Virus record (IMG/VR): IMGVR_UViG_3300045988_130116
DNA length: 64,000 nucleotides
From: a virus
Direction: 5' to 3' (one strand)
This document shows, one piece after another, positions 4,934 to 42,751 of the stretch (position 1 is the first letter of the stretch; every line of letters begins with the position of its first letter). The notes beneath the pieces were generated by a model. The model was not told the DNA's origin. It searched no databases and saw only the letters and a program-made list of their open reading frames with translations. Position numbers and translations under genes: made by a program.

Positions 4934-4937
4934 ATAT

Positions 4938-5006
4938 GACAAGGTGGAGTAATGGAAACTCGTTAGATTAATTCTAAAGATGTAGGTTCAAATCCTTCCC
5001 TTGTGA
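4938..5006 (+). ncRNA. aberrant tRNA-shaped element 2 (tRNA mimic with a 5-nt anticodon loop)
   Basis: Acceptor GACAAGG/CCTTGTG with G:G at 1:72. U8 is present. D stem GAGT/ACTC with loop AATGGAA. Perfect 5-bp stem TTAGA/TCTAA closed by the 5-nt loop TTAAT. 4-nt variable region. T arm GTAGG-TTCAAAT-CCTTC. No encoded CCA. Confidence 0.55.
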
Positions 5007-5032
5007 ATATTTAACATTTTACCTTCTTTCTA

Positions 5033-5054: not shown

Positions 5055-5129
5055 GCTGGTGTGGCTCAATGGCAGAGCAGCTGACTTGTAATCAGCAGGT
5101 TGTAGGTTCGACTCCTATCGCCAGCTCCA
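5055..5129 (+). tRNA. tRNA-Thr (anticodon UGU) with encoded CCA
   Basis: Canonical cloverleaf. Acceptor GCTGGTG/CGCCAGC. D arm GCTC-AATGGCA-GAGC. Anticodon arm GCTGA-CTTGTAA-TCAGC. Variable AGGTT. T arm GTAGG-TTCGACT-CCTAT. Discriminator T, then CCA. Confidence 0.9.
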
Positions 5130-24646: not shown

Positions 24647-27600
24647 TTGGCTGATGATATAAGAATTAGAGTCTATCCAACCGTTGATAAAGGACAATCA
24701 GCATCAGAGTTATCAAAAGTTATAGCAGATTTAGAAAAAAATGCTAAGAAAATAAAGGTTGGAATAGATGACAAAGAATTGCTTACACAAATTGAAAAAC
24801 TTAAAGAGCAAATAAATAGCTTGACTAAAGGGTCAAATACAAAAGGCAATTCTAAAATGTTTCAAGGCGAAGCAAAAAGTGCAAAAGAATTAGTCGCAGA
24901 ATATAAAAAGTTAATATCTGAAAAAGATAAACTTGAAAAGAAAATGTCTAAACAGACATATCAAGGACAGGCTTATAAAGCTTTATCTAAAGATTTAACA
25001 AAAGTTAATAAAGACATTGAATCAGTTGGTAGTAAAATTGATGCTTTAAATAAAAAGAATATTAAATCTGATATTACTTCTAGTTTAAATTCTTCATTTG
25101 AATCAACAATTAAAAAGGTAACTGAATTAGGAACTTCTATCGAAAATGCTTTAGGGAAACGTAAACTTGCAGGTAATCAAGTAGCTGATATTAAGACTTT
25201 ACAAAACCAAGTTGAAAAGTTTAAACAAGAAGCGAATCTTGAGAATATACTGAAAGCAGATAAACCATATGCTGAAATGTCTAAGTTAATCACTAAGGCA
25301 GATGAACTCTCTAGGTCTTTTAAGAAACTAGAATTATCAGATAATCTAGCTAGAAGTATAAGAAAAGCAGAGGCAGATGCGAGTATCCTTCAAAATAAGA
25401 TTAAGTCCTTATATACAAAAGGGTATGGAGACAACAATTCTATTGATAAATTATTTACTAGAGCAAAAGAATTAAGCAATATTAATATAAGAGTTAATGG
25501 TAAAACAGCAGAAGCAGATTTAATTAATCTTAATAATAAAATAAAAGATTTAGATACTGATTATAATAAGTTGGTAGCAGATATGCAAAGAAATAAAAAG
25601 ATGGATGTTTTCAAAATAAATGTATCTGCATCAATGAAACAATTAGAAGAATTAAGAACTAAATTTACAAGTTTAGGGAAAGACACATCTCAAATAGATT
25701 CTTTAAAAACTAAGTTAGAAGGGTTAAATAAATTAACCTTTGCACAGGCACAAGAAGAATTTTCTAAAATAAAAACTCGAATAAGTGAAGTGTCAGGAGA
25801 AATACCAAAGGCTACTTCTGCTATGAATCAATTTAATAAGTTGATGAATGAAAGAGCTTCTTTAGAAAAACAAATGTCTAAGACTACAAATAATCAATCT
25901 TATGCAGTTTTAAATAAGCAGTTAGATGAAAATTTAGTTAAGATTAGGAATGTATCTAAAGAGTTAGATGTATTAAAGAATAAGAATTTTGAACCAAATA
26001 TAACTAAAAGTTTGGCAGCAACATTTAATCAATTACAAGATTCTGCAACTAAAACATCTCAAACTATAGACAATATGTTCAAAAATAAGAATCTAACAGA
26101 AGGGCAAATCTCTCAATTAGAAGCTTTAAGAAAAGAAATGGATAGGATTAAGGGTACGAAATTAGATAATATTCTAAACGTATCTAATTCTCATGAGACA
26201 ATGTCTACGCTTTTATCTGACTTACAAAATGTAAAGAATATAGCGAAAAGTATAGAGATAAATGGTAATTTTAACTCAAGACTTGAAACTGCTTATAAGA
26301 AAGTAACAGATATTGGTTCAAAAATTGCTGATTTAAAAAATAAAGGATTTACTGATAGTCCTCAAATGGTCGCAGACATTGATAAGGTAGTAGCATCTTA
26401 TGAAAAATTAAAAAATGTAAAAATAAATATTAGTTCCGATACTGCGGTTTCAGAGTTAATGGAACTTAACCGTTCTATAGAGAAGACAGAATCAGAAATC
26501 CAAAGATTAAATAATGTTGCTAAAGCAAATAAGCAATCTTTTAAGATTGAAGCAGGTATAAGCGAATCTTTAAATAGATTGGGAGAATATAAACGTGTTA
26601 TACAAACACTAGGAGAGAATACTGCCCCTGTTACTGCTTTAGAACAAAAATTATTAAATCTACTTGATTTACCTTATGACGAGGCATCTACAAGATTAAG
26701 TCAGGTAAATAAAGAAATCAATAAAATGATTCAAAATGCAACTGGTATTAAATCTCAAACAGATGCTTTAAATGCCTTTAATAAGGCAATAACACAAAGA
26801 GATGCTTTAATTAAACAACTTGGAAAAACTCCTGTTGGGACAGAAACTTTTAAAGCTTTAGAATCAGAACTAGGTGTTGTTGAAGGTAAAATAAATACTA
26901 TAGCTAAATTGCTTCCTAATATAAAGATTACCGGAACTTCAACAGAAACAACTAAAGAATTTGCAAAATCTTTTGATAATGTACAAAAATCATTAACTAA
27001 TGCAGAGAGCAAATTAAATGAATTTGGTAGCAAAACTAATCTTACAAAAGGGCAACTGCAAGAATTACAAAGTTTAATGACTCAATTAGGAAATCTTAAA
27101 ATAACTAAATTTGGAGATATTTTAAGCAGTTCAGTTCCTTATAATGAAATGACTAAATTAATACAAAGCACAAGAGAATTAGAAAATGCTTTATCTAATT
27201 TAGGTAAAAATATTAATTTTACAGGAAAACTTGATAGTCAGTTTAATACTGCTATTAGTAAATTTAAGACTTTACAGTCTCAAATGGACTCCTTTAAAGT
27301 TACTAAAATGTTCGGAGATACAACTCAATTAGACAGATTAATTGAGAAAGCAGATAAATTATCTAAGACTAAAATAGATTTAGATTCAGAAGCAGCAGAG
27401 GCAGATATTCAAGATTTAATAAGATTAGCGAATGAATTAGAAAATGAATTTAAGCAAGTTAAAGAAGTTTCTAAAATTAATGAAGGAAACTTTAATTTAG
27501 AGACTGCTCTTAAAAATGCAAATGCAACATTAGACCAATTACAAAGAAAATATCAGTCTATGGGTAAAGATGTTACACCTATAACTAATTTAAGAAATCA

Positions 27601-28249
27601 GTTAAATGGGCTAAATGGGGTCTCTTTAAAAGAAGCGGACGCTCAAATCAGAAGTGTTACAAGTGAAGCAAGACTTTTAGATAAGGCACTTAGACAAACT
27701 GCAAGTTCTTCTAAACAAATGTCTTCAGCAGTAGCTACTTCTGCAAAGAAAACAAGTTCATTTGTCACTAATTTATATTCTACATTATCTACTTATTCAT
27801 TAGGTAATATTTTAGGTATGCAAATAACTAAAGGTATCTATGCAATAAAAGAAACTATTGTAGATTTAGATAGTGCCTTCAGAGATATGGAAAAAGTTGC
27901 TCCTGCTAGTTTTACAGGAACAAAAGAAGAGCTACAAGAAGTTAAGGAATTAGCGTTCCAAACAGGACAAGATGTTGCTAGAAGTTCTGTTGACATTATT
28001 AACTCGACTGCGGCAGCTTTCCAATTAGGTATAGATAATGTTAAACAAGCGATGGAATATGCAAAAGATGTAAATATGTATGCAAATGTCGCAGATGTTA
28101 ATGAGGAAACAGCCGATAAGTATTTAAAAACTATAGCATCAGCTTATGGTGGTGTAACAAAATCATTAGAACCTATGACTCAAAAAGTTAAGGGTGCTAG
28201 TGATTCTTATAATATGTTAACTGATTATATGGATCAGGCAAACAAAATT
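24647..28249 (+). CDS. tail tape measure protein, exon 1 (the unspliced ORF reads on to the TAA at 28253-28255)
   Basis: TTG start after AAAGGTGGTGA. 1201 codons of coiled-coil repeats end in ...LTDYMDQANKI(A), the first half of a TP901-type tape measure core motif. The second half (NNFAVTSGDIGEALQRSAS) resumes at 29047. Confidence 0.75.
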
Positions 28250-28687
28250 GCCTAATTGTCGAGAAATCGGCAATGGATTTACACAATTTGAATTGCAGGT
28301 AACTCCTAAAGCCTTGCACCACAATATCGGAGAAATCACGATATGAAGGTACGAAAGTAGAAACAACGCAAGGATAAGTATATGGTTAAACCCTAAGTAC
28401 TTAGATATGGTTAAAGTAATTACCATATCACAATGGATGTTCATGCAGGTAAGGTTCTAAAGTCATTAAGACCAAGAACAAACTTCAACGACTATGCCTT
28501 TGGATGTTGAAATACATCAATAGCAGTACGGCTCAAGCTAATGGAGTGGGTGAGAATCCCTTAAATGGAAGTGGATTGCCCCTAACACATAATGGTGAGG
28601 GTGAAGAAATAGTCTGGACGCTTATCGAAAGATAAGGAAGTTCATAAGAGAACTGTATAGATGTAGCGAATCTATATGAACATTACG
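28250..28687 (+). ncRNA. group I intron, copy 1 (no ORF)
   Basis: R-like element CTTCAACGACTATG (28483-28496) and S-like element GAAGAAATAGTCTGG (28603-28617). P7 is GACTAT/ATAGTC. Hairpins CTTATC-GAAA-GATAAG and TATAGA-TGTAGCGAA-TCTATA. Ends in G (28687). Boundaries are inferred. Confidence 0.7.
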
Positions 28688-28711
28688 AAACTATGCAGGT
28701 GAATGTAAATT

Positions 28712-29046
28712 AGTCGCCTAGTAATACAAGCGATTGTATTATTTAACCTTTTGAATTGACTGGGAAACCCTTAGAGACTTAATACTACAACATAGCTAGA
28801 AATGGCAAGTGTGAATGTTTGAAAAATTTAAGGATTGGGTAATCAGCAGGTAAGATTCCCTATTGTAAAATACAATGAGAATAAACTCCAACGACTATTT
28901 TCGGCAGAAAAGTACACTCAAGCGAGTGGAAGTGGAAGGCTCTTGTTTTATAACAAGATGAAGATATAGTCTCGACTTCTAGTGAAAGCTAGAGAAGTTC
29001 ATAAGAGAACTGTATGAGAAGTAGCGAACTCATATGAAGATAATCG
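28712..29046 (+). ncRNA. group I intron, copy 2 (no ORF), homologous to copy 1
   Basis: R-like CTCCAACGACTATT (28886-28899). P8 is CTTGTT-TTAT-AACAAG. S-like GAAGATATAGTCTCG (28960-28974). Hairpin TATGAG-AAGTAGCGAA-CTCATA shows compensatory changes relative to copy 1. Terminal G at 29046 lies directly before the in-frame AAC AAC TTT GCA.... Confidence 0.7.
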
Positions 29047-32000
29047 AACAACTTTGCAGTCACTTCAGGTGACATAGGTGAAGCATTACAACGTTCTGCG
29101 TCACAATTAAAAGCAAACGGCAATAGCATGAGTGAAGCCATTGGTATGATTGTTGGTGCTCAGGAAACAGTACAAGATGCTTCTAAATTAGGTAACGCAT
29201 TAAAAACTATAGCAGTTAACATAAATGGGGTTACTTATAATGCTAAAGAAGGAGAAGTAACTCTTAATAAAACAGCGAAGGCATTAAGAGAAGTAGCAGG
29301 AATAGAAACTGCTGACTTAGCAAAAGGTACTACAAGACCTTTATTCGATGTATTAAATGAATTACATGACAAATGGGATTCACTTAATGATGTTGAACAA
29401 AAAACAGTTACAGAAGCAATAGGTAGTAAATATCATGCCAACGTATTACAGGCTATGCTAGATAACTGGGAAACAGTATTACAATACGTTCAAGAATATA
29501 ATGAGGGATTTACTGTTGATTCTGCTAAACAAGAAAATGCTCGTTATATAGACTCCCTTGAAGGGAAAATAGTGGCATTAAAAGACCAATTTAGAGATTT
29601 TATAACAACTGTAATATCAAGTGATATGACTAAAGGGTTAATTACTGGTTTTGCAGAAGTTATGGAAATTGTAAATAAGGTTACTAAATCATTAGATAGT
29701 ATGGGTATGGCTCTACCTGCGACAATAGGGACTGTTGCAAGTTTATTTAGAACATTAAAGGCATCTGCTAAAGGAGAACAATTAACTCTATTTGGTAGTA
29801 GTTTTTATAATGACCTAAAGAAAGCACAAACCCAAACAAAAGTGGTAACAAACCAATTAAAAGATTCCTCTGGTACTGTAACAAGTATGATTTCTAAAAA
29901 TTCAAATAAACTAGCTGGTAATATTCAAACAAGTAATATGAGAATTCAAAAATCATTGGGGAGTTCTAATAAACAATTTAAAGTATACAGAAAAGATGCG
30001 ACAGGAAATTTAAAACAAATAAGTAATACATATAGTAGTGCAACAATAGTTGCAGAAGAAACTCAAAAGGGACTTGGCAAAACAGCAGGGTCAATGGTGT
30101 TAGCAGGTGCTAAATCTATGGCTGCGTCCGTAGGTATATCATTATTGAACGGAGCTATGATAACATTAGCCGCTACATTAATTGGTAATGTTATAGGAGC
30201 AGTAGATGATTATATTCATAGAACAGAAGATATGTACCAAAACACTAAAGAGAATATAGACAAAACACAAAAAGAAATCGGAGACTTAAATAGCAAAAAA
30301 AGTAGTTTAAAAAATATAGCCGATGATTTTGAAGAATTGTCAGGTAAAATGAATCTTACTAGCGAGGAAGCCGAAAAACTATCTCAATATAAACAACAAT
30401 TAGCAGAGATGTTCCCTGAGCTAGTGACTGGTTATGACGAAAACGGTGACCCTTTATTAGCTTTAAGTGGCAGTGCCGATGATTTAATTGAAAAACTAGA
30501 TATAGCAATTAAAAAGAAACAAGAATTGCTTAGATTAGAGGAAAAAGATGCTGCCAATGAAGCAAGTAAAATGGTTGGTAAATACAGACAAGACCAAAAA
30601 GGAAATGTAGAGGATAATATAAAAAGAAATGCTCTTACAAACCCTTTCTTTGATTATTCTGTATTTAGTAATGGATTGGCTAACTATGAAAAAGGATGTA
30701 AAAGATACGAACAGATTGCACAAAATACAGCTGATAAAATCGCTTCAATAAACAGTAGTAATTACGAAAAAAGTTCAAAATATTATTCATTAGAACAAGA
30801 CCAACAAAAAGATGCTATGAATGAAATGAACAGAAATGTTCGCCAATATAAAAACTATGCTAACCTTGGAGATACTCAAAAAGGTAAGTTAATAGAATTA
30901 ATGGGCATATATGACTGGTCAAATGAATTAGTTGCAGAAAACATTAATAAAAGAAATGACTTTTTAGCAGGGTTTGATAAAGTAGCCGATTATGCAGTAG
31001 ATAACTATGATAAAGTTGAAGAATGGAATAAAACACTTAATGCGGCTAATGATGCCTTCCAAGCAACAGGAAATATAGATGATTATAAAAAATCAATTTC
31101 CGGAGTGGCTGAAGAACTTGAAAAATTAACTGGAATAGATTCTAGTGAGTGGATTGAAAGTTTTGTTCCTCAATTACAAGGAAACCTACAACAAGATATG
31201 ATAGAGCTAAACGGATTCTTAAAGGGATTTGGTAAGAATCTTATGGATGTTAATTTAGGAGACGATATGGCTCTTCAACTTCAAAAACAATTTGATGACT
31301 TAAAAGAGGTAACCGATGAAATAGCGGGTAGTGACATTCCTATTGAAACAAAAATAGACTTAGTTACTAAAATAGGTAAAAATGATGACCCATTTGTTGA
31401 TTTACCACCTCAAATAAGAAATCTTATTCAAGGTATAACTGATGGCGGAGATAAGGTAACTACTACAGAATTAGAAGTAATAACAGCAATCTCTACGTCT
31501 TTTAAAAACACTGGTGGTATAGCAGATAATGAAAATCTTGAATTGATTAATAAGATGTTGAATGGGGAACTTACAGAGGCAGAATGTCAAGTAGGAATAT
31601 CTCTTAAAGACGGAAATAAAATAAGCCCTGAGATAACTACAGCTATAAACAATGCTCAAAAAGACAAAGATAATCAAATAAAAGTAGACCTAAATAAAGA
31701 TTATCTTAAAGAGCAACTTGAAAATATTAAATCTGAAATAAAGAAATATACTAAAGTAAGTGAAAACGAAAAAATATCAGACTTATTTACTAGCGGAACT
31801 ATTGATACAAGTCAGTTAGAATATGTAAATAAATTACTTGAAAGTATGCCTTTTGGAGACAAGACTGTTGATTTAATTTGTGAATTAGGTGGAGCATTTA
31901 ATAATGGGGAACTTACAAATTATAAAAGTATCATAGAATATTTGTTAGACCATCCTAACATAGCAAATAAAGTTGGAGTCACAGTTGTAGGAGAAAAAAC

Positions 32001-34791
32001 AGTAGATACTGTTAAAAATGAATTAGATAAATTCATGGAAACAGATGAAGAAAAAAAAATAGCAGTTAAAGTAGAGAATGGATTAGCGAAGGGCGACATA
32101 GTACAAGTAAGAGAGGCTTTAAACGAATTAGACGAGGAAAAAAGAGTTAAGGTCGTAAGTGATATAGTTGATGCTTTAGACGGATTAGATACTGTAGACG
32201 CTAGAACGATAAAAGAAAAACTTGTAAAATTCTTTATAGAAAAAGATGAAGTAGATGAAAAAACATCAGAAATAGAAGGTAAACCAGCAGAAAAATCAGT
32301 AGTATTTAAGAGCGAAAATTTCGCAGAAACATTAGGTCAAACTATTGAAATAGATGAAAAAGGTAATCCTGTTATAAAACCTATAAACTTCTCTACAAAT
32401 GGATATACAGACACAGTAAATAAAACTGATACTGTTACTCAAAAATCCAAACCTGAAACTAAAAAGGTTACAATGGATGGTAAAAACGGATATACAGATA
32501 CAGTAAACAAAGAAGATACTGTTACAAGAAAAGCTAAAAACGAGACTAAAAAAGTTACAATGGACGGTAAAAATGGGTTTACAGATACAGTAAATAAAGA
32601 AGATACCGTTACAAAAAAGGCTAAACCTGAAACTAAAAAAGTTACATTTATTGGTGCTATGTCAGACGGATTAAAGTCGATATTTAATAGAATAGATAAA
32701 TTTATACAAGGCGCAAGTATCCCTGTAAGATTTGGTAGTGTTGAAGGATTTAAGAATATTTCTGATACGCCTGTTGAAATAAACGCTCCATCTCCTCCTG
32801 TAACAGCTCAATCTGATGTTAGCATGAGTTCCGTTGACGGAGCATCTCCAACACCAACAGAAGGCACTGATGGGGTCTCTGCTACAGCATTTAAAGATTT
32901 TGGAGCAGTAGGTTCTAGCAAATCTACTAAAACAAAAATAGACATTACTTCTAAAAATTTACTTTATGCTTTAAAGAACGGCATTAATATGTTCCAAGAA
33001 TTAGAGAATAGAATTTCTCGTTGTACTAACCAACTAGCTTTATTAGATAAAAAAATGGAACGTGCAACTGGAACAGAAAAAATAAAGAACTTAAAGAAAC
33101 AAAATGAATTATACGAACAACAAGTTGGTTTACAAAAAGAATACTATGATTCGTTAATGGACGAAAAGAAAATATTAAGAGAGCAACTAAAGAAAAAAGG
33201 ATTTGCTTTTAATAATCAGGGAAATCTAATTAGCTATGAAGAAAAATTAGCCAAGATGCAAAAAGAATATGATAAATTAGAAAAAGCATATGATAAAGCT
33301 CAAAAATCAGAAAGTAATTATAAAGGCAAAAGCGACAAAAAGAAAAAATCATATAGCAAAGCTACAGAAAATGCAAAAAACAAGTTAGATAAATATAAAG
33401 AAAAATTAGACGAAACAAAAGACCTTACAGAAGAATATATTAAAATCCAATATACAGATTTACCTAAAGCCGAACAAGAATGGCAAGATATGAAAAATGC
33501 TATTGAAGAAAATAAAGATGAGATTGAAAAACTTCTATTAGAGGATAGACTTTATAAATTTAAAAATGGCGTGACTGAATTGTCTAACGAATTTAAAGTA
33601 TTAGGTAATCAATTAGATTTATTAGACGCAAAATTAGAATATGCTACTGGTAAAGAAAAGGTTGATTTATACGGACAAGAAATTGAACAAATTGAAAAAC
33701 AAAGAGCCAATCTTCAAAAAACAATAGACCAATATAATGAAATGGTAGATGTTTATAAAGATAGTTTATCTTCATATGGATTTAAATTTGATGATAATAA
33801 CAATGTGACAAATCAAAAAGAAATCTTAGACAAGTATCAAAACACAGACGATTTAGAAAAAGTGACGGATTTACTTGAAGAATATATAAAACTTCAAACA
33901 GATGAATTGCCTGATGCCATCGTTCAATGGGAAGAATTAGGAAATAAAATTAAAGATATCCAAAATGAAAAATTAGATATAGTAAAAGACATGGAAGAAG
34001 AAATCACAAAAGTATATGAAGATGAAATAGAAAAAAGAAAAGATGCAATAGAAGAAGAAAAAGATGCAAGAGTTAAGGCTTTAGAAGAACAAAAAAAGGC
34101 TTATCAAGACTATAGAAGCGAAGTTGATTATAAAGATGATTATAATGAACAATTAGATAAAATTAATAAATTAAAAAGTAAGATTTCTGTACTTGAAAGA
34201 GATACTTCTTTAGCTTCGAGAAGTAAGTTGCAAGAAGCTTATGATGAATTAGCAGAAGAAGAAAAGGCGTTAAAAGATATTCAACAAGACAGATTGGATG
34301 AAAAAATTGAAAATATGTATGATGATGAAATAGATAAAGCAGAAAAAGAATCAGAAGATAAAATAAAGGCACTTGAGAATTTATGGACGCCTGAAAAAAT
34401 AGCAGAAATGGTTACAAAGAATTTGTCTACTAATACTTTTACAGATTTAGATGGGAATGTTAAAAATCTACAAGATACGCTTATAGAATTTGCAGAAACT
34501 TCAGGAGACGCATTGGGTATAATGGGAGATTCTATTAAAAATGATTTAATTAATAACTTACAAATTGCAACAGATGTATTAAAACAATATACGGATATAT
34601 ATAATTCTTTAGGCTTAAAACAATATGGAACAAATTATAAAGATATGTATGACAATAAAAATCCTCGTAATACAAATCTTCAATTAGGAGGCATACATGT
34701 TAATATTCAAGGAAATCCTGACGAAGTTACGATTAACAAATTAACAAAGGCAATAGAAGAAGAATTTAAATATATTTCAAATAAATTATAG
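29047..34791 (+). CDS. tail tape measure protein, exon 2
   Basis: The frame of the 29128 ORF is open back to 29044. From 29047 it reads NNFAVTSGDIGEALQRSASQLKANGNSMSEAIGMIVGAQETVQDASKLGNALKTI, a tape measure core. A hydrophobic segment and long coiled coils follow. Confidence 0.75.
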   Translation, partial: NNFAVTSGDIGEALQRSASQLKANGNSMSEAIGMIVGAQETVQDASKLGNALKTIAVNINGVTYNAKEGEVTLNKTAKALREVAGIETADLAKGTTRPLFDVLNELHDKWDSLNDVEQKTVTEAIGSKYHANVLQAMLDNWETVLQYVQEYNEGFTVDSAKQENARYIDSLEGKIVALKDQFRDFITTVISSDMTKGLITGFAEVMEIVNKVTKSLDSMGMALPATIGTVASLFRTLKASAKGEQLTLFGSSFYNDLKKAQTQTKVVTNQLKDSSGTVTSMISKNSNKLAGNIQTSNMRIQKSLGSSNKQFKVYRKDATGNLKQISNTYSSATIVAEETQKGLGKTAGSMVLAGAKSMAASVGISLLNGAMITLAATLIGNVIGAVDDYIHRTEDMYQNTKENIDKTQKEIGDLNSKKSSLKNIADDFEELSGKMNLTSEEAEKLSQYKQQLAEMFPELVTGYDENGDPLLALSGSADDLIEKLDIAIKKKQELLRLEEKDAANEASKMVGKYRQDQKGNVEDNIKRNALTNPFFDYSVFSNGLANYEKGCKRYEQIAQNTADKIASINSSNYEKSSKYYSLEQDQQKDAMNEMNRNVRQYKNYANLGDTQKGKLIELMGIYDWSNELVAENINKRNDFLAGFDKVADYAVDNYDKVEEWNKTLNAANDAFQATGNIDDYKKSISGVAEELEKLTGIDSSEWIESFVPQLQGNLQQDMIELNGFLKGFGKNLMDVNLGDDMALQLQKQFDDLKEVTDEIAGSDIPIETKIDLVTKIGKNDDPFVDLPPQIRNLIQGITDGGDKVTTTELEVITAISTSFKNTGGIADNENLELINKMLNGELTEAECQVGISLKDGNKISPEITTAINNAQKDKDNQIKVDLNKDYLKEQLENIKSEIKKYTKVSENEKISDLFTSGTIDTSQLEYVNKLLESMPFGDKTVDLICELGGAFNNGELTNYKSIIEYLLDHPNIANKVGVTVVGEKTVDTVKNELDKFMETDEEKKIAVKVENGLAKGDIVQVREALNELDEEKRVKVVSDIVDALDGLDTVDARTIKEKLVKFFIEKDEVDEKTSEIEGKPAEKSVVFKSENFAETLGQTIEIDEKGNPVIKPINFSTNGYTDTVNKTDTVTQKSKPETKKVTMDGKNGYTDTVNKEDTVTRKAKNETKKVTMDGKNGFTDTVNKEDTVTKKAKPETKKVTFIGAMSDGLKSIFNRIDKFIQGASIPVRFGSVEGFKNISDTPVEINAPSPPVTAQSDVSMSSVDGASPTPTEGTDGVSATAFKDFGAVGSSKSTKTKIDITSKNLLYALKNGINMFQELENRISRCTNQLALLDKKMERATGTEKIKNLKKQNELYEQQVGLQKEYYDSLMDEKKILREQLKKKGFAFNNQGNLISYEEKLAKMQKEYDKLEKAYDKAQKSESNYKGKSDKKKKSYSKATENAKNKLDKYKEKLDETKDLTEEYIKIQYTDLPKAEQEWQDMKNAIEENKDEIEKLLLEDRLYKFKNGVTELSNEFKVLGNQLDLLDAKLEYATGKEKVDLYGQEIEQIEKQRANLQKTIDQYNEMVDVYKDSLSSYGFKFDDNNNVTNQKEILDKYQNTDDLEKVTDLLEEYIKLQTDELPDAIVQWEELGNKIKDIQNEKLDIVKDMEEEITKVYEDEIEKRKDAIEEEKDARVKALEEQKKAYQDYRSEVDYKDDYNEQLDKINKLKSKISVLERDTSLASRSKLQEAYDELAEEEKALKDIQQDRLDEKIENMYDDEIDKAEKESEDKIKALENLWTPEKIAEMVTKNLSTNTFTDLDGNVKNLQDTLIEFAETSGDALGIMGDSIKNDLINNLQIATDVLKQYTDIYNSLGLKQYGTNYKDMYDNKNPRNTNLQLGGIHVNIQGNPDEVTINKLTKAIEEEFKYISNKL
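32398..32658 (+). repeat. three in-frame tandem 87-nt (29-aa) repeats inside the tape measure gene
   Basis: NGYTDTVNKTDTVTQKSKPETKKVTMDGK, then NGYTDTVNKEDTVTRKAKNETKKVTMDGK, then NGFTDTVNKEDTVTKKAKPETKKVTFIG. Units start at 32398, 32485 and 32572. Confidence 0.9.
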
Positions 34792-34836: not shown

Positions 34837-35583
34837 ATGTTTATTTCAGATAAATTTATGTTTAACGGAGTGTCATGTGATGAATATAACGTTAGATTGG
34901 TATATTTTGAAAATAATATAGTTAATGATATGAAGATACCCTTTTCTATATCTGTTAATTCAGATAGCAAAGATAGTATTTATCCGGTATATAAAGAAGA
35001 AACAAATACTCCTGATCAAGTTGTTTTAAACTTAGCTTATGTAAATAAAGAGGGAAATTTAGCAACTTTTTCAAGCGAGATATTTAAAAGAATAAAAACG
35101 TGGTTAATTACTGATTATTTTGCCCCTTTTATAACAGAAGATTACCCTGATTATATTATTTATTTAAAATGTGTAAAAATACAAGATAAACTGACTTTTG
35201 GAAATCAAGGGTTTTTAGAAGTGACATTCCAGCCATATACTCATTACTTTTATAAACAATTCGAAACAGATGTTCTTTTAAGCGGTGATAATGCGATAAC
35301 TATAGAAAATATAAGTCAAGAAATTTGTTATCCTATAATAATAGCCGAAACAACAGATGATATAATTAACACTATAGAAATTAATGATATGACTTTAAAA
35401 TTACAATTAAACGAACCTGTATCTGTAGATAATAAAATGCTTACAGTTTTAAATTCTAAAGGTGAAAATAAATTATCTTATTGTAATAGGAAATGGATTA
35501 AATTATTACCCGGAAGTAATAATTTAAAATTATATGGTTATGGTAAAATTAAAATAAAAGCAGAATTTCCAGTAATATTATAG
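34837..35583 (+). CDS. putative distal tail protein (Dit)
   Basis: 248 aa, the first gene after the tape measure. This is the conserved siphovirus order TMP-Dit-Tal. Confidence 0.55.
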   Translation: MFISDKFMFNGVSCDEYNVRLVYFENNIVNDMKIPFSISVNSDSKDSIYPVYKEETNTPDQVVLNLAYVNKEGNLATFSSEIFKRIKTWLITDYFAPFITEDYPDYIIYLKCVKIQDKLTFGNQGFLEVTFQPYTHYFYKQFETDVLLSGDNAITIENISQEICYPIIIAETTDDIINTIEINDMTLKLQLNEPVSVDNKMLTVLNSKGENKLSYCNRKWIKLLPGSNNLKLYGYGKIKIKAEFPVIL

Positions 35584-37317
35584 GTGATGAACATGGGTAT
35601 AATTTTAAAAGAAATGAAACAAGGATATACTGATTTACTATTACATAAAACCAATAAAGAGATAATATGTGCTATGCCTATTGATTTTTTATCGAGTGTC
35701 ACAAGAGGAATTACAGATATTGATTCAATAACAATTATAGTTAACAAAATCATAGATAATAATAAAGAATATCCTTTTTATGACGAATTTAAAATTGAAA
35801 GGCTTATATCTTTAGATGGGGAATTTTTTATAATTAAAGAATGTACAGAAAATAAAGATGAAAAATCTAAGACAATTAAAGCATATGGATTCCAAAAAAA
35901 ATTAGAGAAAAATAATATTGTTTTAACCAATATAGGAATAATGCTTAATAATTCAGATTACTCTAATGGAAATAATATAATTATTAATTTAAACGAATAT
36001 ATGTATCAAGAAACAGGGTGGAAATTTGGTCATATAGACGAAGAAGTTTTGTATTCAAATTACACAAAAGGTAGTTCTTATTTAATGGATAAAGCAGGGA
36101 ATTATATTTTAACAAAAAGTGCGGAATTAATAGAGATAAAACAACATTTTAATCCACGTATGAGATGGTTAGAGGATATAGATACTGATTGGTTTACTTT
36201 TATATCTGAAAATATATCAGAAGAATTTGAATGTGTTCCTGTATTTGATAATACAAAACAAGAGATTAATTTATATTATATAGATAATTTTGGGGATAAT
36301 CTAGGATTAATACTATCTTATGACAATTATATTAAAAGCTTAGAAGTGTCAGATAATTCTTCCGATATAATTACTCGACTTACTTTGATAGGAAATGAAG
36401 ATAAATGTATCGTAAGTGACTATCTTCCTACTGGAAAAAACTATGTAGAAAATTATTCTTATTTTATTAAGAATAAAGAGATGAGTGATGAATTAATTTT
36501 GGCTTTAGAAAAACATGATGCTTTACTTGAAGGAGTAGATACGCAATTAAGAAAATTAAGGGCAGAAAAATTAGAAGAAGAAAAAAAATTAACAGACTAT
36601 AAAACTCAATGGTTCTTCTATATAGAATATAATAAACAATTAAAAGAAATTGAAGCAAACTATAGAAATTCAGGGAATATCGAAAGAGCAACAGAAATAG
36701 CACTTCAATTAAATGAAGGCATGGATAAAGAAGCCATATATATGGCTAATACAATGAAGAGTGAAAAAAAGGTAGAAGAAATAAAAGAATCAATAAAACA
36801 ATTAAATATTCAGTGTAATAGAGAAAGTTGTTTAGTAGACGGGAAAAGATTATTTAGTGATAAATTATTAGAAGAATTAAAGAACTTCATATATTATGAT
36901 ACATATTCAAATGATGCCTTTTATGATGCCCAAGAAATAATATCTTGCGGGAAGAGAGAATTAGAATTAAGATGTTGCCCTACCAGAGACATATCTATAG
37001 ATATTGAAAGTTTTTTAAATAAACTTATAGATAATGATTTTAGACAACATTGGAACGGAGTTTTAGGGCTAGGAGACATAATTGCTATATATGACAAAGA
37101 AAAAGAAACAGAAGAGTGGTTTTATTTAGTTGGTTATGAATATTCTTTAAAAGAAGGCACTTTACAAATTAGATTATCTAATAAAAAATTAGAAAGTAAT
37201 ACTAAAAAAGTTATTTTAGATGTATTAAAAAATGCAAAAGAAGATAATAAACAAATGTTGAAAAATAGAAGATTATGGAATCTATTAAAAGAAAATAAAA
37301 TTAATATTGAAGAATAA
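35584..37317 (+). CDS. putative tail-associated (Tal / prophage tail endopeptidase-type) protein
   Basis: Second gene after the tape measure. The N-terminal region resembles the phage minor structural protein N-terminal family by eye. Central coiled coil. Confidence 0.5.
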   Translation: MMNMGIILKEMKQGYTDLLLHKTNKEIICAMPIDFLSSVTRGITDIDSITIIVNKIIDNNKEYPFYDEFKIERLISLDGEFFIIKECTENKDEKSKTIKAYGFQKKLEKNNIVLTNIGIMLNNSDYSNGNNIIINLNEYMYQETGWKFGHIDEEVLYSNYTKGSSYLMDKAGNYILTKSAELIEIKQHFNPRMRWLEDIDTDWFTFISENISEEFECVPVFDNTKQEINLYYIDNFGDNLGLILSYDNYIKSLEVSDNSSDIITRLTLIGNEDKCIVSDYLPTGKNYVENYSYFIKNKEMSDELILALEKHDALLEGVDTQLRKLRAEKLEEEKKLTDYKTQWFFYIEYNKQLKEIEANYRNSGNIERATEIALQLNEGMDKEAIYMANTMKSEKKVEEIKESIKQLNIQCNRESCLVDGKRLFSDKLLEELKNFIYYDTYSNDAFYDAQEIISCGKRELELRCCPTRDISIDIESFLNKLIDNDFRQHWNGVLGLGDIIAIYDKEKETEEWFYLVGYEYSLKEGTLQIRLSNKKLESNTKKVILDVLKNAKEDNKQMLKNRRLWNLLKENKINIEE

Positions 37318-37330
37318 GGACGGTGAGTAT

Positions 37331-40300
37331 ATGGCTTGTTTATCTAATACTCCTTCCTTTACTTATGTAAGTGTACAAAATATGGTAATAGGGTATAAAA
37401 ATATATATTACAATATTAAAAATATGTATAGTAGTGATAAGTATTTTTATTGGGATAAAAACGAATCACCTTATGAACTTATAACTTCAAATACTACACT
37501 AGAAAGTAAAGAGGGGCTATTTTTAGTCGTAGTAAATAATAAGGGAACATTTATACTCCCAAATCAAGTAGAAATAACAATAAATTTTGATAACAGTAGT
37601 GGCGGAGACAATGATTCTAACTTAACTAATATTGTTGAAAAAGTTGATGAAATAGAAAAGAAATACACTACTGTTTCCCAAACAGTAGATGGGATAACTA
37701 AAACAGTAGGAATATTAAGAAAAGATTTAAGTGGGAGTGCCGATATTTATTCAAAAATTCAACAAACAGCCAAAGAGATACAATTATTAGCACAAGAAGT
37801 TAATAAAGAGTATTCTAATAGTAACAAAGAAGACGATTTAAGACAAAAGATAATCTCATATTCTATTAAAATGAATACTATGTTCTCTGATTTTATTAAG
37901 ACAATGAGAGATGTGTTTGCAGATAGTTTTGTATCAAGTGAAGAAAATTATCAATTAATTAATGAAATGAATAAATTGGACACAGAAATGAAGGTATATT
38001 TTAACTATATAGATGAATTAGTTGAAGTTATGGAACAGAAAAAAGAAACTGAAAATGCGAATTTATTAAAAAGCCAAAAAGAGGCATTAGAGGGAGCATT
38101 TAATAACTTTCAAAAAACACTTTGGGATTCTATTGAAGATCAGGCAGTAACACCAACAGAAACCTCTATATTAATTGGGTTTGCGACAACTTGCCAAGCT
38201 AGATTAGATGATTTAAAGAAAACTTGTGATGATTTTTTATTTATAGGAATTGGTGGTGCGATTTATGAAGAAATTGCAAAATTAAACGTAGAAAAGAATA
38301 AAATATTAATGGAACTTAAAGCAGTTACAACTACTTTAAAAAGTTCTTTAAGTATCGAGAAGTCATCTTTACAAGCACAATATGAAGATATATTAGCCCA
38401 ACTAAATCTGCTTGAAGCATGGATTAAAGAAGCTTCAGAAGACGGAACTATTACAGTTATAGAAAGAAATATATTAAAAGAAAGAATGGCTAATTTAGAA
38501 AAAGAAAGTGATGATTTAATAGAAAAATATGATGAGTATTTAGAAACTTTAAGTTTAAGTGAAGATGAATTTGCAGAGATGAGATTAGAGTTTTTAAAAT
38601 ACTCTGCTAGTTATAATTCTTTAGTAAATAATATAAATCAAGTTACAGCTGACAATTATTTCAATGAGATAGAAAAAGTACAAGTAATTACTGCCTTAGA
38701 AGAGTATAGAGCTACAGTAAATTTATTCTTTAATTATTTAGGTAAAATGATAGCTAAATCAGAAAATAATAGATATACTCAAGAGATAGAAGATGCTAAG
38801 GGAGAGGTATCTCTTCAAATACAACAAGTAACAGAAGCACTAAACGATTTAAGTGTTACTCTTGATGAGACGTTTGCAAATAATATGATAGATAAAATAG
38901 AAAGGGCTTCTATAGAAGCTAATCTAAGTTCTTTGTCCTTCCAAAAAGAAGAGGTGGACAGCCAGTATAAAAGAATTATATTAAAAGCGAGTATGCAAAA
39001 TACATCTTTAGCAGAAAGAAAAGATTTAGATGAAAAATACAATGCGTTTATAACTGCTTATACCAATATAACAAATGAAGTTACGAGAATTTTAAATAAA
39101 GAAGAATTAGTTACCGATGAGGATAAAGCCGCTATGGATTCTTTATATAATATTGCAAGAGAAGCTATAAAGGTGTATACAACTTCTGCTAATAGTGCTT
39201 TGATTTATATATCTGAAAATGAGGCTAAAGCAATAAATGATTCTTTGGCTAAAGATATTGCAAATTTAAAAGCTAGGGTTGATAATATAGAAGTCGGTTA
39301 TGATGAGACTTTTGCAGATAATATAATAGATCAGGCAGAGAGAAAGGAAATTAAATCAAAAAGACATATATTAGAAGTACAAAATGCAGACATAAAAGCT
39401 CAATATGAATCTCTTAATTCCTCAACTTATATAACTTCTTCTGATAAAACTAAATTAACTACTGCTTATAATACATATGCAAGTAAATATACTGCTTTAA
39501 ATAAGGCAATAGATGATGCTTTAGCTAAAACAACTTTGCTTGATGACCCTGATGTAGAAAAAATAAATAACGCTATGAGTGATTTTAGCAATTCATTATC
39601 TAATTTTGTTACAGTCGCAAATAAAGTTATAGAAGATATTGCAAATGAGCAAACAAAACAATATACTTCTAATTTCGATACTAGAATAGGAAAATTAGAA
39701 GATAGTTTAAACAATATAGATACTGTAATAGATGCAACTCTTTCTGATAGTATAGTTAGTAAATCAGAAAGAAAAATTTTGAAGGCAGCTTTAAAGGCTT
39801 TAGAAACATCAAAACTTAATATAGATAACCAATATAATGAGTTATTTAAAAATAAAATGGTGTCAATGTTTGCTAGAGGAAAATATAAGAAAGCATATAA
39901 AAGTTATATTGCTGCTTATAATACATATGTAGAAAGTATAAATGATATTATAAATACAACAGGAACAATAGATAACACTTTAAGAACTCAATATGAAAAA
40001 GCATATGAAGAATATAAAGCTAAATTAGATGCCTTTTCAAAACAACATCAACTAACAGTAGACGATTTAACTAGAAATATATCTAGTGAAATGAAAACTA
40101 GCATGACTAAAGAAACTAGAGAGGTTATGGAAGCTTTAAAGACATTAGATGATAGCATGGAAGATATATTTAATGATTCTAAATTAACAGATGCAGAAAA
40201 GACTACTATAAGAGGATATTTAAATGATTTTAAAGTTAAAAAAGATACCATTGAAACAAAATATAACAGTATTTTGAATGACCTAACGCTACAGGACAGT

Positions 40301-42751
40301 AAAACTCGTTTAACCTCAGCTTATGATAACTATATATCCGCTTATAATAATTTATATAATGCAGTAGACACATTGTTAAAAAGAACAGATATGCTCTGTG
40401 AGGATGATAGAAATATATTAGACACATATGTATTGGCTCATAATGAAGCTTTAGAAAATTATAGTCTTGTATATAAAGAAATGGTTGAAGAAAGTACTAA
40501 AAACTTTGTAGAAAAAACAAAACAAGAATTAGAAAAAAATATAAAAGACATAAATGATACAATTTCTAGCTTAGAAGAAAATTTAAATGGAGTATTTAGA
40601 GACGGAATATTAACAGATGCAGAAAAAAACTCCATTAAACAATCATTACAAGTTTTACAAAATGAAAAAACAGGTATAGATGCAGACTATACTTCCATAC
40701 ATAGTAATTCAGATTTGGTGGATAAAGATGCGACTATTCACCCAAAATTAGATTTAGAAAATGCTTATAATGATTATATTTCTTCTCACACAAAATTAGT
40801 TAAAATTATAAATGATTTATTAGCTAAGACAGGAATAATAGATAGTAATGATAAAACTACTTTAGATAAAGCATTTGCTGATTATAGAGCTAAATTACAA
40901 GATTATAAAAAAGCTATTAATAATGCAATAGATGCAATAGCCAGTAAAAAAATTGATGATGAGCGTAGTGAAAGAATAGAGCAATATCAAAAGATAGAAA
41001 CATTAGTAGGAGAAATAAGAACTACTGTTGGAAAAACTTCAGAAGATTTAGATTCTCTTAAAAAAATAACTGGAGAATCTTTTGAGAGCATAAAACCCGA
41101 AGGCATAATAAACACAGTTAAAGAATCAACTGAACAAGATGGAACAAAGACATTTGCAAGACAGTCAGAAGTAAATCAAACAGTAAATAGCTTAACAATT
41201 AAATTTTCAGAAATGAATAGTAAAATAGAAAATAATGTTACGGTTATTTCTTCTGACGGTATTACGATTAATATGTATGACGATGATTGTTTTGATAGCA
41301 ACGGAGATATTATAGAAGGCTCTTCTCCAGTAGCTTCTACAAATATAAACGGACAAGGGCTATATATATACAAAGAAGTAGACGGAACTCCAATAGCCTA
41401 TTTCTCAATGGACGAATGTTATATATCTAATTTAAAAACAGATAAAATGAACGGAGCAAATGTTTTAGCTACAACAGAAAATAGAGATATGCCTAAAACT
41501 TGGTATGTCGCACCTACTGAAACAGGAGATGGATCAGGAAGAGATGTTAACAATAAAGCGAGTACAATAAATAGAGTTATCAATGAAATTAAAGATAATT
41601 ATGGTGTTTATTTTGAAGACGAAGACATTACTATAAAAATAGAAGGCGGAAAATATAATGAAGAAGTTGCAGTTAACGGATTTTTGGGATATGGAACGTT
41701 GACATTGTTGTTTGACACATCTTCTGTGTTATATGGTCAAATTCATGTAGAGAATAATACTTTAAATATTTCTTTAGACGGACAAAAGACAAACACATCT
41801 ACGTCAGGAGCAATAATATATTCATATCAATCAAAAGAGCAAGATGCTATAGTTGTAAGAAATTCTTATTGTACAATAGATGGATTTAAAGCTAAAAATT
41901 TATCTAGTAGTGGTACAAGTTATTATGGCACATTTGCCAGATTTACAAATGGTTCAAGGGGAACAGTAAGCGATTGTGACGTTATTTATTACGAAACTCC
42001 AATTATAAGTGATTATGGTTCACAAGTAGGATTCTGGAATGTAAAAGGTAAAACAAAAGTAAGAAGAACTGTTCAAAATGGTGGAATTGTAGTATCAGGA
42101 GGAGTTATTCCTTCAACTACAGATACAAAAGACAGCATAAGTAGAGGATTTATACATCAAACTGGTACATTAACTGAAACAACTACTATGGGTTGGTATA
42201 GTAGTAGTGGCTCAGGTGGAAGCGGAGGTTCATCTGGAGGACAAGACGGTTCTTCAACAAATACTCAAACTGTTACTAAAACATTTACTTTAACTAATTT
42301 AAAAAGTGTTCCCGAAGGTAGTGGGAAAGCAACGTCTGGATTTAGTGGAAAAATGGCTCAAGGGAAATATAGTTCTTATAAACTTCATAGAGGTGAAGCA
42401 AAAATCCCTTCTTCTGCTTTAGATTTTATTAAATCCGCTACCTCAATAGAATCTGTTTCATTAACTTGTCATAGATTAAATACTTCACATGGTACTTCTG
42501 CGGCAGTCCCATATCCAAGAATGAGATTAAAAAATACAAGTAAAGGAACTTATTCTAGTTATTACGCTAATAGCAGTATTAAATTTGCCAGAGGGGATAC
42601 TAAAACAATTCCTATTGATAATAACTCTTTTAAAACATTCCTATTAAATGGAGCAGATGAATTACAATTTTATGTTGCAAGTGATGGAAATCCTACACAA
42701 CAATATTCTCATTACGATAATGTAAAATTAGAAATAACTATTAAAAAATAA
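37331..42751 (+). CDS. giant tail fibre/minor structural protein with repeated coiled-coil modules and a C-terminal globular domain
   Basis: ATG 37331 follows AAGGACGGTGAG; the track's TTG at 37307 is upstream of it. Five or more repeats of a roughly 135-150-aa module. Gly/Ser linker SSSGSGGSGGSSGGQDGSS. Confidence 0.65.
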   Translation: MACLSNTPSFTYVSVQNMVIGYKNIYYNIKNMYSSDKYFYWDKNESPYELITSNTTLESKEGLFLVVVNNKGTFILPNQVEITINFDNSSGGDNDSNLTNIVEKVDEIEKKYTTVSQTVDGITKTVGILRKDLSGSADIYSKIQQTAKEIQLLAQEVNKEYSNSNKEDDLRQKIISYSIKMNTMFSDFIKTMRDVFADSFVSSEENYQLINEMNKLDTEMKVYFNYIDELVEVMEQKKETENANLLKSQKEALEGAFNNFQKTLWDSIEDQAVTPTETSILIGFATTCQARLDDLKKTCDDFLFIGIGGAIYEEIAKLNVEKNKILMELKAVTTTLKSSLSIEKSSLQAQYEDILAQLNLLEAWIKEASEDGTITVIERNILKERMANLEKESDDLIEKYDEYLETLSLSEDEFAEMRLEFLKYSASYNSLVNNINQVTADNYFNEIEKVQVITALEEYRATVNLFFNYLGKMIAKSENNRYTQEIEDAKGEVSLQIQQVTEALNDLSVTLDETFANNMIDKIERASIEANLSSLSFQKEEVDSQYKRIILKASMQNTSLAERKDLDEKYNAFITAYTNITNEVTRILNKEELVTDEDKAAMDSLYNIAREAIKVYTTSANSALIYISENEAKAINDSLAKDIANLKARVDNIEVGYDETFADNIIDQAERKEIKSKRHILEVQNADIKAQYESLNSSTYITSSDKTKLTTAYNTYASKYTALNKAIDDALAKTTLLDDPDVEKINNAMSDFSNSLSNFVTVANKVIEDIANEQTKQYTSNFDTRIGKLEDSLNNIDTVIDATLSDSIVSKSERKILKAALKALETSKLNIDNQYNELFKNKMVSMFARGKYKKAYKSYIAAYNTYVESINDIINTTGTIDNTLRTQYEKAYEEYKAKLDAFSKQHQLTVDDLTRNISSEMKTSMTKETREVMEALKTLDDSMEDIFNDSKLTDAEKTTIRGYLNDFKVKKDTIETKYNSILNDLTLQDSKTRLTSAYDNYISAYNNLYNAVDTLLKRTDMLCEDDRNILDTYVLAHNEALENYSLVYKEMVEESTKNFVEKTKQELEKNIKDINDTISSLEENLNGVFRDGILTDAEKNSIKQSLQVLQNEKTGIDADYTSIHSNSDLVDKDATIHPKLDLENAYNDYISSHTKLVKIINDLLAKTGIIDSNDKTTLDKAFADYRAKLQDYKKAINNAIDAIASKKIDDERSERIEQYQKIETLVGEIRTTVGKTSEDLDSLKKITGESFESIKPEGIINTVKESTEQDGTKTFARQSEVNQTVNSLTIKFSEMNSKIENNVTVISSDGITINMYDDDCFDSNGDIIEGSSPVASTNINGQGLYIYKEVDGTPIAYFSMDECYISNLKTDKMNGANVLATTENRDMPKTWYVAPTETGDGSGRDVNNKASTINRVINEIKDNYGVYFEDEDITIKIEGGKYNEEVAVNGFLGYGTLTLLFDTSSVLYGQIHVENNTLNISLDGQKTNTSTSGAIIYSYQSKEQDAIVVRNSYCTIDGFKAKNLSSSGTSYYGTFARFTNGSRGTVSDCDVIYYETPIISDYGSQVGFWNVKGKTKVRRTVQNGGIVVSGGVIPSTTDTKDSISRGFIHQTGTLTETTTMGWYSSSGSGGSGGSSGGQDGSSTNTQTVTKTFTLTNLKSVPEGSGKATSGFSGKMAQGKYSSYKLHRGEAKIPSSALDFIKSATSIESVSLTCHRLNTSHGTSAAVPYPRMRLKNTSKGTYSSYYANSSIKFARGDTKTIPIDNNSFKTFLLNGADELQFYVASDGNPTQQYSHYDNVKLEITIKK

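Follow-up and report, generated by a model that had tools for sequence, protein, structure and literature searches.

Two group I introns predicted 13 bp apart in a phage tape measure gene

Group I introns are well documented in phage genes, where several may occupy one gene with or without endonuclease open reading frames (ORFs) (PMC3984707, PMC11878797). The described arrangements closest to the one considered here place two such introns around a very short exon: in Twort orf142 a 23-nt exon lies between two similar IA2 introns and exon skipping has been seen, the Coxiella burnetii 23S introns Cbu.L1917 and Cbu.L1951 enclose a 34-nt exon, and tandem introns whose splice-site recognition elements are identical are prone to skipping of the short exon between them (PMC10136302). 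Further comparison is offered by mobile phage introns and their ORF-less derivatives (T4 td, nrdB and sunY; the DNA polymerase introns of SPO1 and SP82; deletion derivatives of the S. thermophilus lysin intron; the multi-intron genes of Bastillevirinae, PMC11878797; reviewed in PMC3984707) and by phage phiCD211, for which GenBank LN681537 annotates Intron_gpI inside the tape measure protein (TMP) gene; a literature search found no open paper discussing that intron. The subject here is a 64,000-nt stretch of viral DNA (IMG/VR record IMGVR_UViG_3300045988_130116), called the window, whose TMP gene (24647-34791) is interrupted at two sites within its conserved PhageMin_Tail core. The best explanation, held with high confidence, is that two mobile group I introns inserted independently 13 bp apart (intron 1 at the upstream site 1, intron 2 at site 2) and that both are spliced out to give one TMP of 3116 amino acids (aa).

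Set beside these systems, the window is, in essence, an ordinary example of a phage gene colonised by mobile introns, with two unusual details: the 13-nt exon between ribozymes that use the same guide, and a C-G pair at the cleavage site of intron 1. Like introns I2 and I3 of Twort orf142, the window pair consists of two similar IA-type introns in a phage protein gene with a very short exon between them, and the cores are 75-83% identical in nucleotide sequence to staphylococcal phage introns. The window exon is, however, shorter than the Twort and Coxiella exons cited in PMC10136302, its host gene encodes a TMP, intron 1 has the C-G pair, and splicing and skipping are demonstrated in Twort but predicted in the window. 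The Coxiella pair also comprises two bacterial group I introns with a very short exon between them, but it lies in an rRNA gene and combines subgroups IB2 and IA3, whereas the window gene is protein-coding and its introns share a family and a guide. The window family resembles the mobile phage introns in that a peripheral loop houses the endonuclease ORF, close relatives differ in whether an intron is present, some variants lack the ORF, one and the same intron may hold unrelated endonucleases, and a gene may contain several introns; it differs in its host gene, which is structural (tail) and not one of DNA metabolism, and in occupied sites so close together.

The phiCD211 group (pCD1602_4, ES-S-0107-01 and AR1086-1) resembles the window in carrying a homologous gene, with 45-50% aa identity in the core, that is interrupted in the same domain, and the intron of pCD1602_4 lies exactly at site 2 (GGT^AAT, the caret marking the splice site) with a homologous P1 loop. 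The phiCD211 intron, in contrast, lies about 50 codons downstream, and neither a site-1 intron nor the 13-nt exon occurs in any of these relatives. A nucleotide search of GenBank phages with the window gave matches in the intron cores only, and the window phage is a distinct lineage. A first reading of the DNA from its letters (the sequence-only reading) had called a tandem duplicated pair with no endonuclease inside a tape measure gene unusual; a group I intron in a TMP gene is in itself no novelty, given the existing annotation in LN681537 and relatives with three, four or more TMP introns.

The argument for splicing starts from the gene itself. Two long ORFs precede the Dit gene, 24647-28255 (1202 aa) and 29128-34791 (1887 aa), and both match TMP families. 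PHROG 13137 is matched consecutively, the end of exon 1 covering profile positions 75-485 and the start of exon 3 positions 492-539; PHROG TMP families (13137, 10871, 4211) match across both halves, and the peptide across the joined halves has one PF10145 PhageMin_Tail match (E 1.3e-14), which spans the break. Together with tblastn matches to the phiCD211 group, these results agree with the proposal of the sequence-only reading, and the two ORFs are identified on homology as halves of one TMP. The nearest TMPs among GenBank phages, at 45-50% aa identity, belong to the large Clostridioides phages phiCD211, phiCDIF1296T, AR1086-1, ES-S-0173-01, ES-S-0107-01 and pCD1602_4; the nearest cultured relatives of this TMP are Clostridioides phages. 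In both PHROG 13137 and GenBank CEK40405.1 (phiCD211 "Minor tail protein") the intron-truncated N-terminal exon figures as a protein in its own right, of about 541 aa; these reference entries for the phage group overlook the predicted splicing.

The intron boundaries come from relatives in which one site or the other is empty. Close relatives (L006-L018) were found by a peptide-seeded scan of IMG/VR, and their introns were defined by exon homology because Rfam misses all endonuclease-bearing forms. In L006-L008 (97-99% aa identity) there is an insertion at site 1 only (...ACG^AAAC TAT GCA GGT AAC AAC TTT GCA...), and these genomes read GCAGGTAACAACTTTGCA across site 2. In L009-L017 and L087 (72-99%) and in L018, site 2 is the only one of the two that is occupied (GAT CAG GCA AAC TAT GCG GGT^GAATG...), and contiguous GATCAGGCAAACTATGCGGGT in these relatives without intron 1 sets the end of exon 1. 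Positions 28240-28249 are missing from every allele without intron 1, and 28688-28700 is exon in every single-intron relative, joined to the upstream exon in L009-L018 and to the downstream exon in L006-L008. The single-intron alleles thereby define both predicted junctions to the base. Intron 1 has a 4-nt AAAC repeat at both ends, which allows five registers; 28240-28687 was chosen because it is the only one that ends in the G (omega-G, 28687) of the omega-G rule. The register of intron 2 is unambiguous, with its omega-G at 29046, and the earlier observation that both copies end in G at these two positions holds.

Joined in silico, the exons form a coding sequence of 9351 nt that specifies 3116 aa with no internal stop. 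The model removes 794 nt and predicts the RNA junction ...GATCAGGC-AAACTATGCAGGT-AACAACTTT...; the spliced junction is predicted to read ...DQANYAGNNFAVTSGD..., without gaps against uninterrupted homologs, and the joined protein to contain ...MDQANYAGNNFAVTSGDIGEALQR..., with DYMDQANYAGNNFAVTSGD at the junction of the 3116-aa product and GASDSYNMLTDYMDQANYAGNNFAVTSGDIGEALQR as the tryptic peptide across it. The junction DQANYAGNNFAVT likewise aligns gap-free with uninterrupted homologs. The uninterrupted TMPs of phiCD211, AR1086-1 and ES-S-0173-01 have D-[LQ]-[AS]-N-Y-A-G-N-N-F-A-[VI]-T, which matches the predicted product without a gap, and the uninterrupted GenBank homologs read D-L-(A/S)-N-Y-A-G-N-N-F-A-(V/I)-T-T-G-D; the mini-exon is nearly identical to the corresponding uninterrupted exon of phiCD211, TCGAACTATGCAGGT. 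The junction peptide first proposed, QANKINNFAVT, should read QANYAGNNFAVT.

Guide pairing agrees with these sites. In both introns a 4-nt guide, GCCU, pairs with the exon end AGG(C/U) in the initial hairpin. Intron 2 has the canonical U.G at its cleavage site (U28700.G28716), and its P1 covaries: AGGU/GCCU in the window stands against GGGU/GCCC in L009, L012, L014 and L103, a synonymous exon change (GCA to GCG) matched by T to C in the guide. The G.U wobble at the cleavage site is described as the conserved hallmark of group I ribozymes and the target of guanosine attack (PMC4201826). The corresponding pair of intron 1, C28239-G28250, is Watson-Crick and not U.G. All five carriers (the window, L006-L008 and L103) have C there, which is the second base of a conserved Ala codon; a U would alter the protein. 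Engineered Anabaena intron constructs tolerate a pyrimidine opposite the guide G at this place (PMC12355055), and a C-G cleavage site is unusual but not implausible. The site-2 intron of pCD1602_4 has a P1 homologous to that of intron 1 (GGU^UA-ACAAAA-UAGCC), with the same loop and a normal U.G pair. The UU at 28248-49 of intron 1 could pair with the 3' exon as P10, because intron 1 and its 3' exon both start AAAC and the UU pairs with the first intron bases in P1. An in-frame stop follows each 5' splice site (TAA 28253-28255 in intron 1, TAG 28719-28721 in intron 2); such a stop soon after the 5' splice site is typical of phage introns.

Other placements fare less well. The sequence-only reading had set the 5' splice sites after AAATT (28249 and 28711), but these motifs lie in the P1 loops and the sites supported here are 28239^28240 and 28700^28701; the shared 5' block TTTGAATTG is not a P1 feature but J3/4 and the start of P4. 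A 24-nt mini-exon at 28688-28711, with both 5' exons ending in AAATT, was rejected for the in-frame TGA inside it. A 5' splice site after T28248 keeps the frame (DQANKINYAG) and was rejected as well, since KIN is absent from relatives without intron 1 and guide pairing lends the site no support. Nor is the pair a twintron: the introns lie side by side, and the exon sequence between them runs on into either flank in alleles with a single intron.

The catalytic cores were sought with the Rfam model RF00028 (Intron_gpI; gathering score 50), as the sequence-only reading had proposed, and both were matched on the + strand, with 81.5 bits at 28705-28994 and 46.2 bits at 28225-28637 (E 2e-10 for the region searched alone, 1.5e-8 for the full window); elsewhere in the 64-kb window there was no further group I match. 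Structure was scored on a 3'-domain alignment (A3) of 23 members, both window introns and 21 relatives from viral contigs, over P7, P7.2, P8, P9, P9.1 and P9.2, with 3' partners slid by 1-3 columns and 500 shuffles as controls. Standard pairs fill 88.3% of cells, against 34-44% with slid partners, and changes on both sides occur in 18 of 34 pairs (91 cells), values that none of the 500 shuffles attains. P7, P9.1 and P9.2 are each 100% paired, P7 including one compensatory change, and five of the six P9.2 pairs covary; P7.2 is 64% paired in this mixed alignment, which may come from misalignment of intron-1-type against intron-2-type members. Because 3'-domain covariation beats both kinds of control, the ribozyme cores are real and under structural selection. 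Differences between intron 1 and its ortholog in L006 are compensated in P9 and P9.2. Hairpins P7.1, P7.2, P9.1 and P9.2 stand at the expected places in both introns, which appear to belong to the IA-like (IA2-like) family, with P7.1/P7.2 and P9.1/P9.2, that is common in Firmicutes phages.

Much of what had been read from the letters is recovered in this structure. The R-like element (CAACGACTA at 28486 and 28889) and the S-like element (ATAGTCT) are the two P7 strands, P8 lies between them in both copies, and the hairpin with compensatory changes that follows GAAGTTCATAAGAGAACTGTAT is P9.2. The gap is indeed non-coding and the introns ORF-less, the ORF list holding no + strand ORF longer than 44 aa inside it; its GC content is raised as claimed, though only modestly, at 0.36-0.38 against 0.26-0.35 in the flanks. 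Coordinates are collected in Table 1.

Table 1. Predicted features of the interrupted TMP gene in the window (caret, splice site).
Feature	Position	Strand	Details and basis
TMP exon 1	24647..28239	+	TTG start at 24647 with GGTGGTGA before it; ends ...GAT CAG GC; PHROG 13137 and PF10145
Intron 1 P1, AGGCAA/UUGCCU, loop ACAAAA	28236..28253 (28236-41 with 28248-53)	+	minimum free energy fold -7.0 kcal/mol, z -2.8
Intron 1, group I, 448 nt, no ORF	28240..28687	+	RF00028; boundaries from L009-L018 (without it); at GGC^AAAC
Intron 1 P6-loop segment, 15 nt	28459..28473	+	in relatives ~743 nt including a 246-aa endonuclease ORF; L103 has the same junction
Intron 1 P7 5' strand, GACUA	28490..28494	+	inside CAACGACUA 28486-28494; pairs with 28610-28614 (UAGUC); Rfam alignment
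Intron 1 P9, P9.1, P9.2	28621..28676	+	P9 28621-26/28631-36 (GAAA loop); P9.1 28640-43/28650-53; P9.2 28656-61/28671-76; A3
Mini-exon, A AAC TAT GCA GGT, 13 nt	28688..28700	+	completes the Ala codon, then encodes N-Y-A-G
Intron 2 P1, AGGU^GA..UG / UA..UCGCCU	28697..28719 (28697-28705 with 28711-28719)	+	minimum free energy fold -7.7 kcal/mol
Intron 2, group I, 346 nt, no ORF	28701..29046	+	RF00028; boundaries from L006-L008 (without it); at GGT^AAC
Intron 2 P6b hairpin tip, 19 nt	28859..28877	+	in relatives ~765 nt including a LAGLIDADG or CapR-domain ORF
Intron 2 3' catalytic domain	28893..29034	+	Rfam alignment, A3 covariation
Intron 2 P7, P7.1, P7.2, P3'	P7 28893-97/28967-71; P7.1 28898-902/28907-11; P7.2 28915-19/28924-28; P3' 28933-39	+	
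Intron 2 P8, P9, P9.1, P9.2	P8 28941-47/28952-58; P9 28977-83/28988-94; P9.1 28997-29000/29007-10; P9.2 29013-18/29029-34	+	
TMP exon 3	29047..34791	+	begins AAC AAC TTT (NNFAVTSGDIGEALQR...), ends at stop; tblastn to phiCD211-group TMPs, PHROG

Where did the two introns come from? The sequence-only reading saw a duplicated, directly tandem pair, but the 13-nt exon encoding (A)NYAG lies between the copies, and local tandem duplication was rejected: the introns are not mutual nearest relatives, single-site alleles exist for both sites, and the shared 22-mer block is present in 68 IMG/VR stretches. Aligned pairwise, introns 1 and 2 have a mean column identity of 71%, with only the 3' part aligning. 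Nucleotides 42-219 of intron 1 (window 28281-28458), by comparison, are 97% identical to L018:3836-4013, part of an intron at another TMP site ("site 4"), and the 3' domain of intron 1 is 88.8% identical to that of L043, located at the same downstream site as in L018; around this site-4 intron the exon alignment of L018 and L043 is too divergent to place the 5' splice site. The first 41 nt of intron 1, which hold the P1 guide and P2, are unrelated to the L018 intron, and intron 1 looks like a ribozyme body retargeted by a swap of its guide region. Because the two introns are not closest relatives and relatives hold either one singly, the pair is read as two independent arrivals of one widespread phage intron family.

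The order of arrival may be judged from distribution. The site-2 intron occurs widely, in phages whose TMP identity is as low as about 40-70% and also in pCD1602_4; the site-1 intron is confined to the immediate clade of the window and is for that reason probably the later arrival. The two targets are alike, CAGGC^AAAC and CAGGT^AACA, and both fit the same guide, a pattern consistent with ectopic integration, whether through an endonuclease of relaxed specificity or by reverse splicing (both reviewed in PMC3984707). On this scheme the site-2 intron would be old and widespread in the phage group, the site-1 intron would be a more recent derivative of the lineage also seen at another TMP site that landed at a look-alike of site 2, and the double allele would have formed by homing or recombination. 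The pattern of intron 1 end, mini-exon and intron 2 start had no match in IMG/VR and 17 in metagenomes, of which one is true: L103, a contig of 141 kb that has about 93% identity to the window and the double-intron arrangement. It carries an ORF-less intron 1 of 464 nt with the P6 junction of the window, the 13-nt mini-exon AAACTATGCGGGT and a LAGLIDADG-encoding intron 2 of 1124 nt. Its mini-exon is the GCG variant that goes with the GCCC guide of L009-type introns, as would be expected had intron 2 homed into an intron-1 allele with a very short co-conversion tract.

Both window introns have longer orthologs, from which they differ mainly in the P6 loop. The site-1 intron is 1176 nt in L006-L008, and the site-2 intron 1090-1124 nt in L009-L016 and L103; L018 has an ortholog of the latter that lacks an ORF. 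In the longer forms the P6 loop accommodates the additional DNA, endonuclease ORF included. Save for these P6 indels of about 750 nt, the window introns align end to end with their orthologs: nt 1-219 and 235-448 of intron 1 correspond to nt 1-219 (98.6%) and 963-1176 (92%) of the L006 intron, and nt 1-158 and 178-346 of intron 2 to nt 1-158 (87%) and 924-1094 (90.6%) of that of L014. The ORF of the L006 site-1 intron encodes 246 aa with a CapR domain (PF21817) and matches PHROG 559, 9084 and 7140 (HNH, homing and intron-encoded nucleases); a PDB sequence search with the CapR-domain intron ORF gave no significant match. The 234-aa product of the L014 site-2 intron is 47% identical in aa to it, whereas the site-2 intron of L009 encodes a double-motif LAGLIDADG_2 protein (PF03161, E 6e-20) unrelated to the CapR type, so that two unrelated endonuclease genes occupy one intron at one site (L009:2124-2828 and L014:2132-2836). 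Since the CapR-type gene is common to the site-1 intron of L006 and the site-2 intron of L014, the comparison suggests that endonuclease genes are exchanged between introns. The window introns are best described, on this alignment, as non-autonomous (ORF-less) forms of mobile elements.

In the scheme that these data favour, each ribozyme would excise itself from the late transcript by the standard two-step, guanosine-initiated reaction, the in-frame stop 5-7 codons into each intron would halt ribosomes ahead of the ribozyme core, and ligation of exon 1, the 13-nt exon and exon 3 would yield the mRNA for a single 3116-aa TMP. Several points weigh against it. Intron 1 reaches 46 bits with RF00028, short of the gathering threshold of 50, probably through a P5 insert of about 130 nt and a misaligned P1. 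Its C-G cleavage pair in place of U.G means that efficient first-step chemistry is not guaranteed, and is the chief ground for questioning how efficiently intron 1 splices; its P1 shows zero covariation, the five carriers being identical there. The single 797-nt excision of the sequence-only reading is also in frame (DQANKINNF), so that frame alone does not discriminate, and because frame fits both models it is the comparative data that tell them apart. The ORF-less state could have come about by deletion or could predate endonuclease invasion, the short stretches that stand in for the P6 DNA being no simple deletions. The sequences themselves show the ribozyme cores, the exact places of insertion, the covariation, the restored ORF and the orthologs with endonuclease genes; that the introns splice in vivo, how efficiently and in which order, and by what evolutionary route they arrived, is inferred.

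Of the alternatives, substantial exon skipping survives best, although it is a possibility to be held tentatively. The pair together, or intron 2 working on the end of exon 1, would join exon 1 to exon 3 with a frameshift, giving a truncated 1207-aa product beside full-length TMP (in silico, a stop at codon 1208 and the C-terminal end ...DQATTLQSLQVT). Skipping is documented for Twort orf142 introns 2 and 3 (23 nt), Coxiella 23S (34 nt) and engineered Tetrahymena tandems (24 nt), and differing recognition elements suppress it (PMC10136302); in the window these elements are the same, AGGC/GCCU and AGGU/GCCU, and an exon of 13 nt between introns that share the guide GCCU makes skipping a reasonable prediction. 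It is, however, a prediction only, its product would be out of frame and wasteful rather than adaptive, and the ribozyme bodies are considerably different, with the 3' part alone aligning. A bolder version of the two-intron explanation, which seems unlikely, goes further: intron 1 would be a natural ribozyme that cleaves after a Watson-Crick-paired C, a rare exception to the U.G rule, with its body, which also occurs at another TMP site, retargeted to a look-alike sequence 13 nt upstream of an occupied site, and some transcripts would skip the exon or use the wrong 5' site to give the truncated 1207-aa fragment. If this were true, ribozyme kinetics would determine how much full-length TMP is made relative to the truncated form.

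It is improbable that one or both introns, intron 1 above all, no longer splice, leaving an N-terminal protein of about 1200 aa terminated by TAA 28253 and a second, C-terminal one that starts anew near 29128. The Rfam score of intron 1 and its non-canonical 5' splice-site pair would fit such decay, as would endonuclease genes lost from or never present in both introns and the record of the halves as separate proteins in GenBank (phiCD211) and PHROG. The break, however, falls inside one conserved domain (PF10145, matched as a single stretch across the junction), the 13-nt exon is conserved and in frame, the helices hold compensatory changes between the window and its orthologs, and an intact intron 1 core is kept in five genomes; the first ATG past the gap is 27 codons into the domain, with no Shine-Dalgarno-like motif seen before it. 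Abutting, locally duplicated introns at 28250-28687 and 28688-29046 with no exon between them and the product ...DQANKI-NNFAVT... would also be excised in frame, would both end in G and would account for the similarity of about 80% between the copies over their 3' 170 nt, but this model is barely credible, as 28688-28700 is exonic in all single-intron relatives and 28240-28249 absent where intron 1 is absent, NYAG precedes NNF in all homologs, P1 pairing favours 28239^28240 and 28700^28701 with covariation at the latter, and the copies are not nearest relatives and share a 22-mer that is family-wide.

Further introns in relatives show how often this region is interrupted. The PhageMin_Tail core of the TMP family is an intron hot-spot, with at least five distinct insertion sites among relatives (L018:1393-5740; L003:1843-3050; L001, L004, L005); pCD1602_4 has three introns in the TMP core and L018 at least four. 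In ES-S-0107-01 a single intron interrupts GAT^GTA, 24 nt downstream of site 2, and has a matching guide of its own, GUCGC. The empty site 2 of L006 (L006:3000-3015) reads GCC GGC^AAC, where sisters have GCA GGT^AAC; these two synonymous changes at the insertion point remove the U for the 5' splice site and might alter the endonuclease target. A further group I 3' domain, 79.6% identical to that of intron 1, lies about 1.7 kb downstream in the TMP gene of L008 (L008:4749-4921; also L060:863-1035), at a place where exon 3 of the window is uninterrupted. With a cutoff of E <= 1e-3, Rfam detected no intron in L001-L005 other than that of AR1086-1 (110 bits), despite the GenBank Intron_gpI at L001:2298-2563, the compact introns of L003 and L004 and gaps in tblastn alignments, which may be an effect of filtering. 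The sole match among GTDB species genomes is L087 (CALEJY010000250.1), an 81.6-kb contig in a "Candidatus Melainabacteria" metagenome-assembled genome, with an L014-type TMP and the site-2 intron; it is probably a mis-binned phage contig and unreliable as host evidence.

The surroundings of the gene are those of a structural module: large terminase (9984-11756) and portal (13454-14929) precede the tail module, and Dit (34837-35583) and a minor tail protein (35584-37317) follow the TMP gene. Large ORFs lie downstream of the tail tip genes at 37307-42751 (1814 aa), 42937-46833 (1298 aa) and 51999-58205 (2068 aa). Upstream of the packaging genes is a tRNA cluster (window 4673-4740, 4937-5007, 5055-5129) in which ARAGORN calls tRNA-Leu(TAA) and tRNA-Thr(TGT); the third tRNA-like Rfam match, 4673-4740 (49 bits), was not called by ARAGORN.

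For annotation, the finding means that the two "tail proteins" of the window phage would be one 3116-aa TMP, and likewise in the phiCD211 group; the spliced sequence would be preferable for tail-length prediction and for proteomics searches. The general picture of phage introns is unaltered. What these phages add is a natural allele series within genomes 72-99% identical, with site 1, site 2 or both occupied, with and without endonuclease, and with two unrelated endonucleases in the same intron. Such a series would make a compact system for intron homing, for co-conversion over 13 bp, and for the gain and loss of endonuclease genes.

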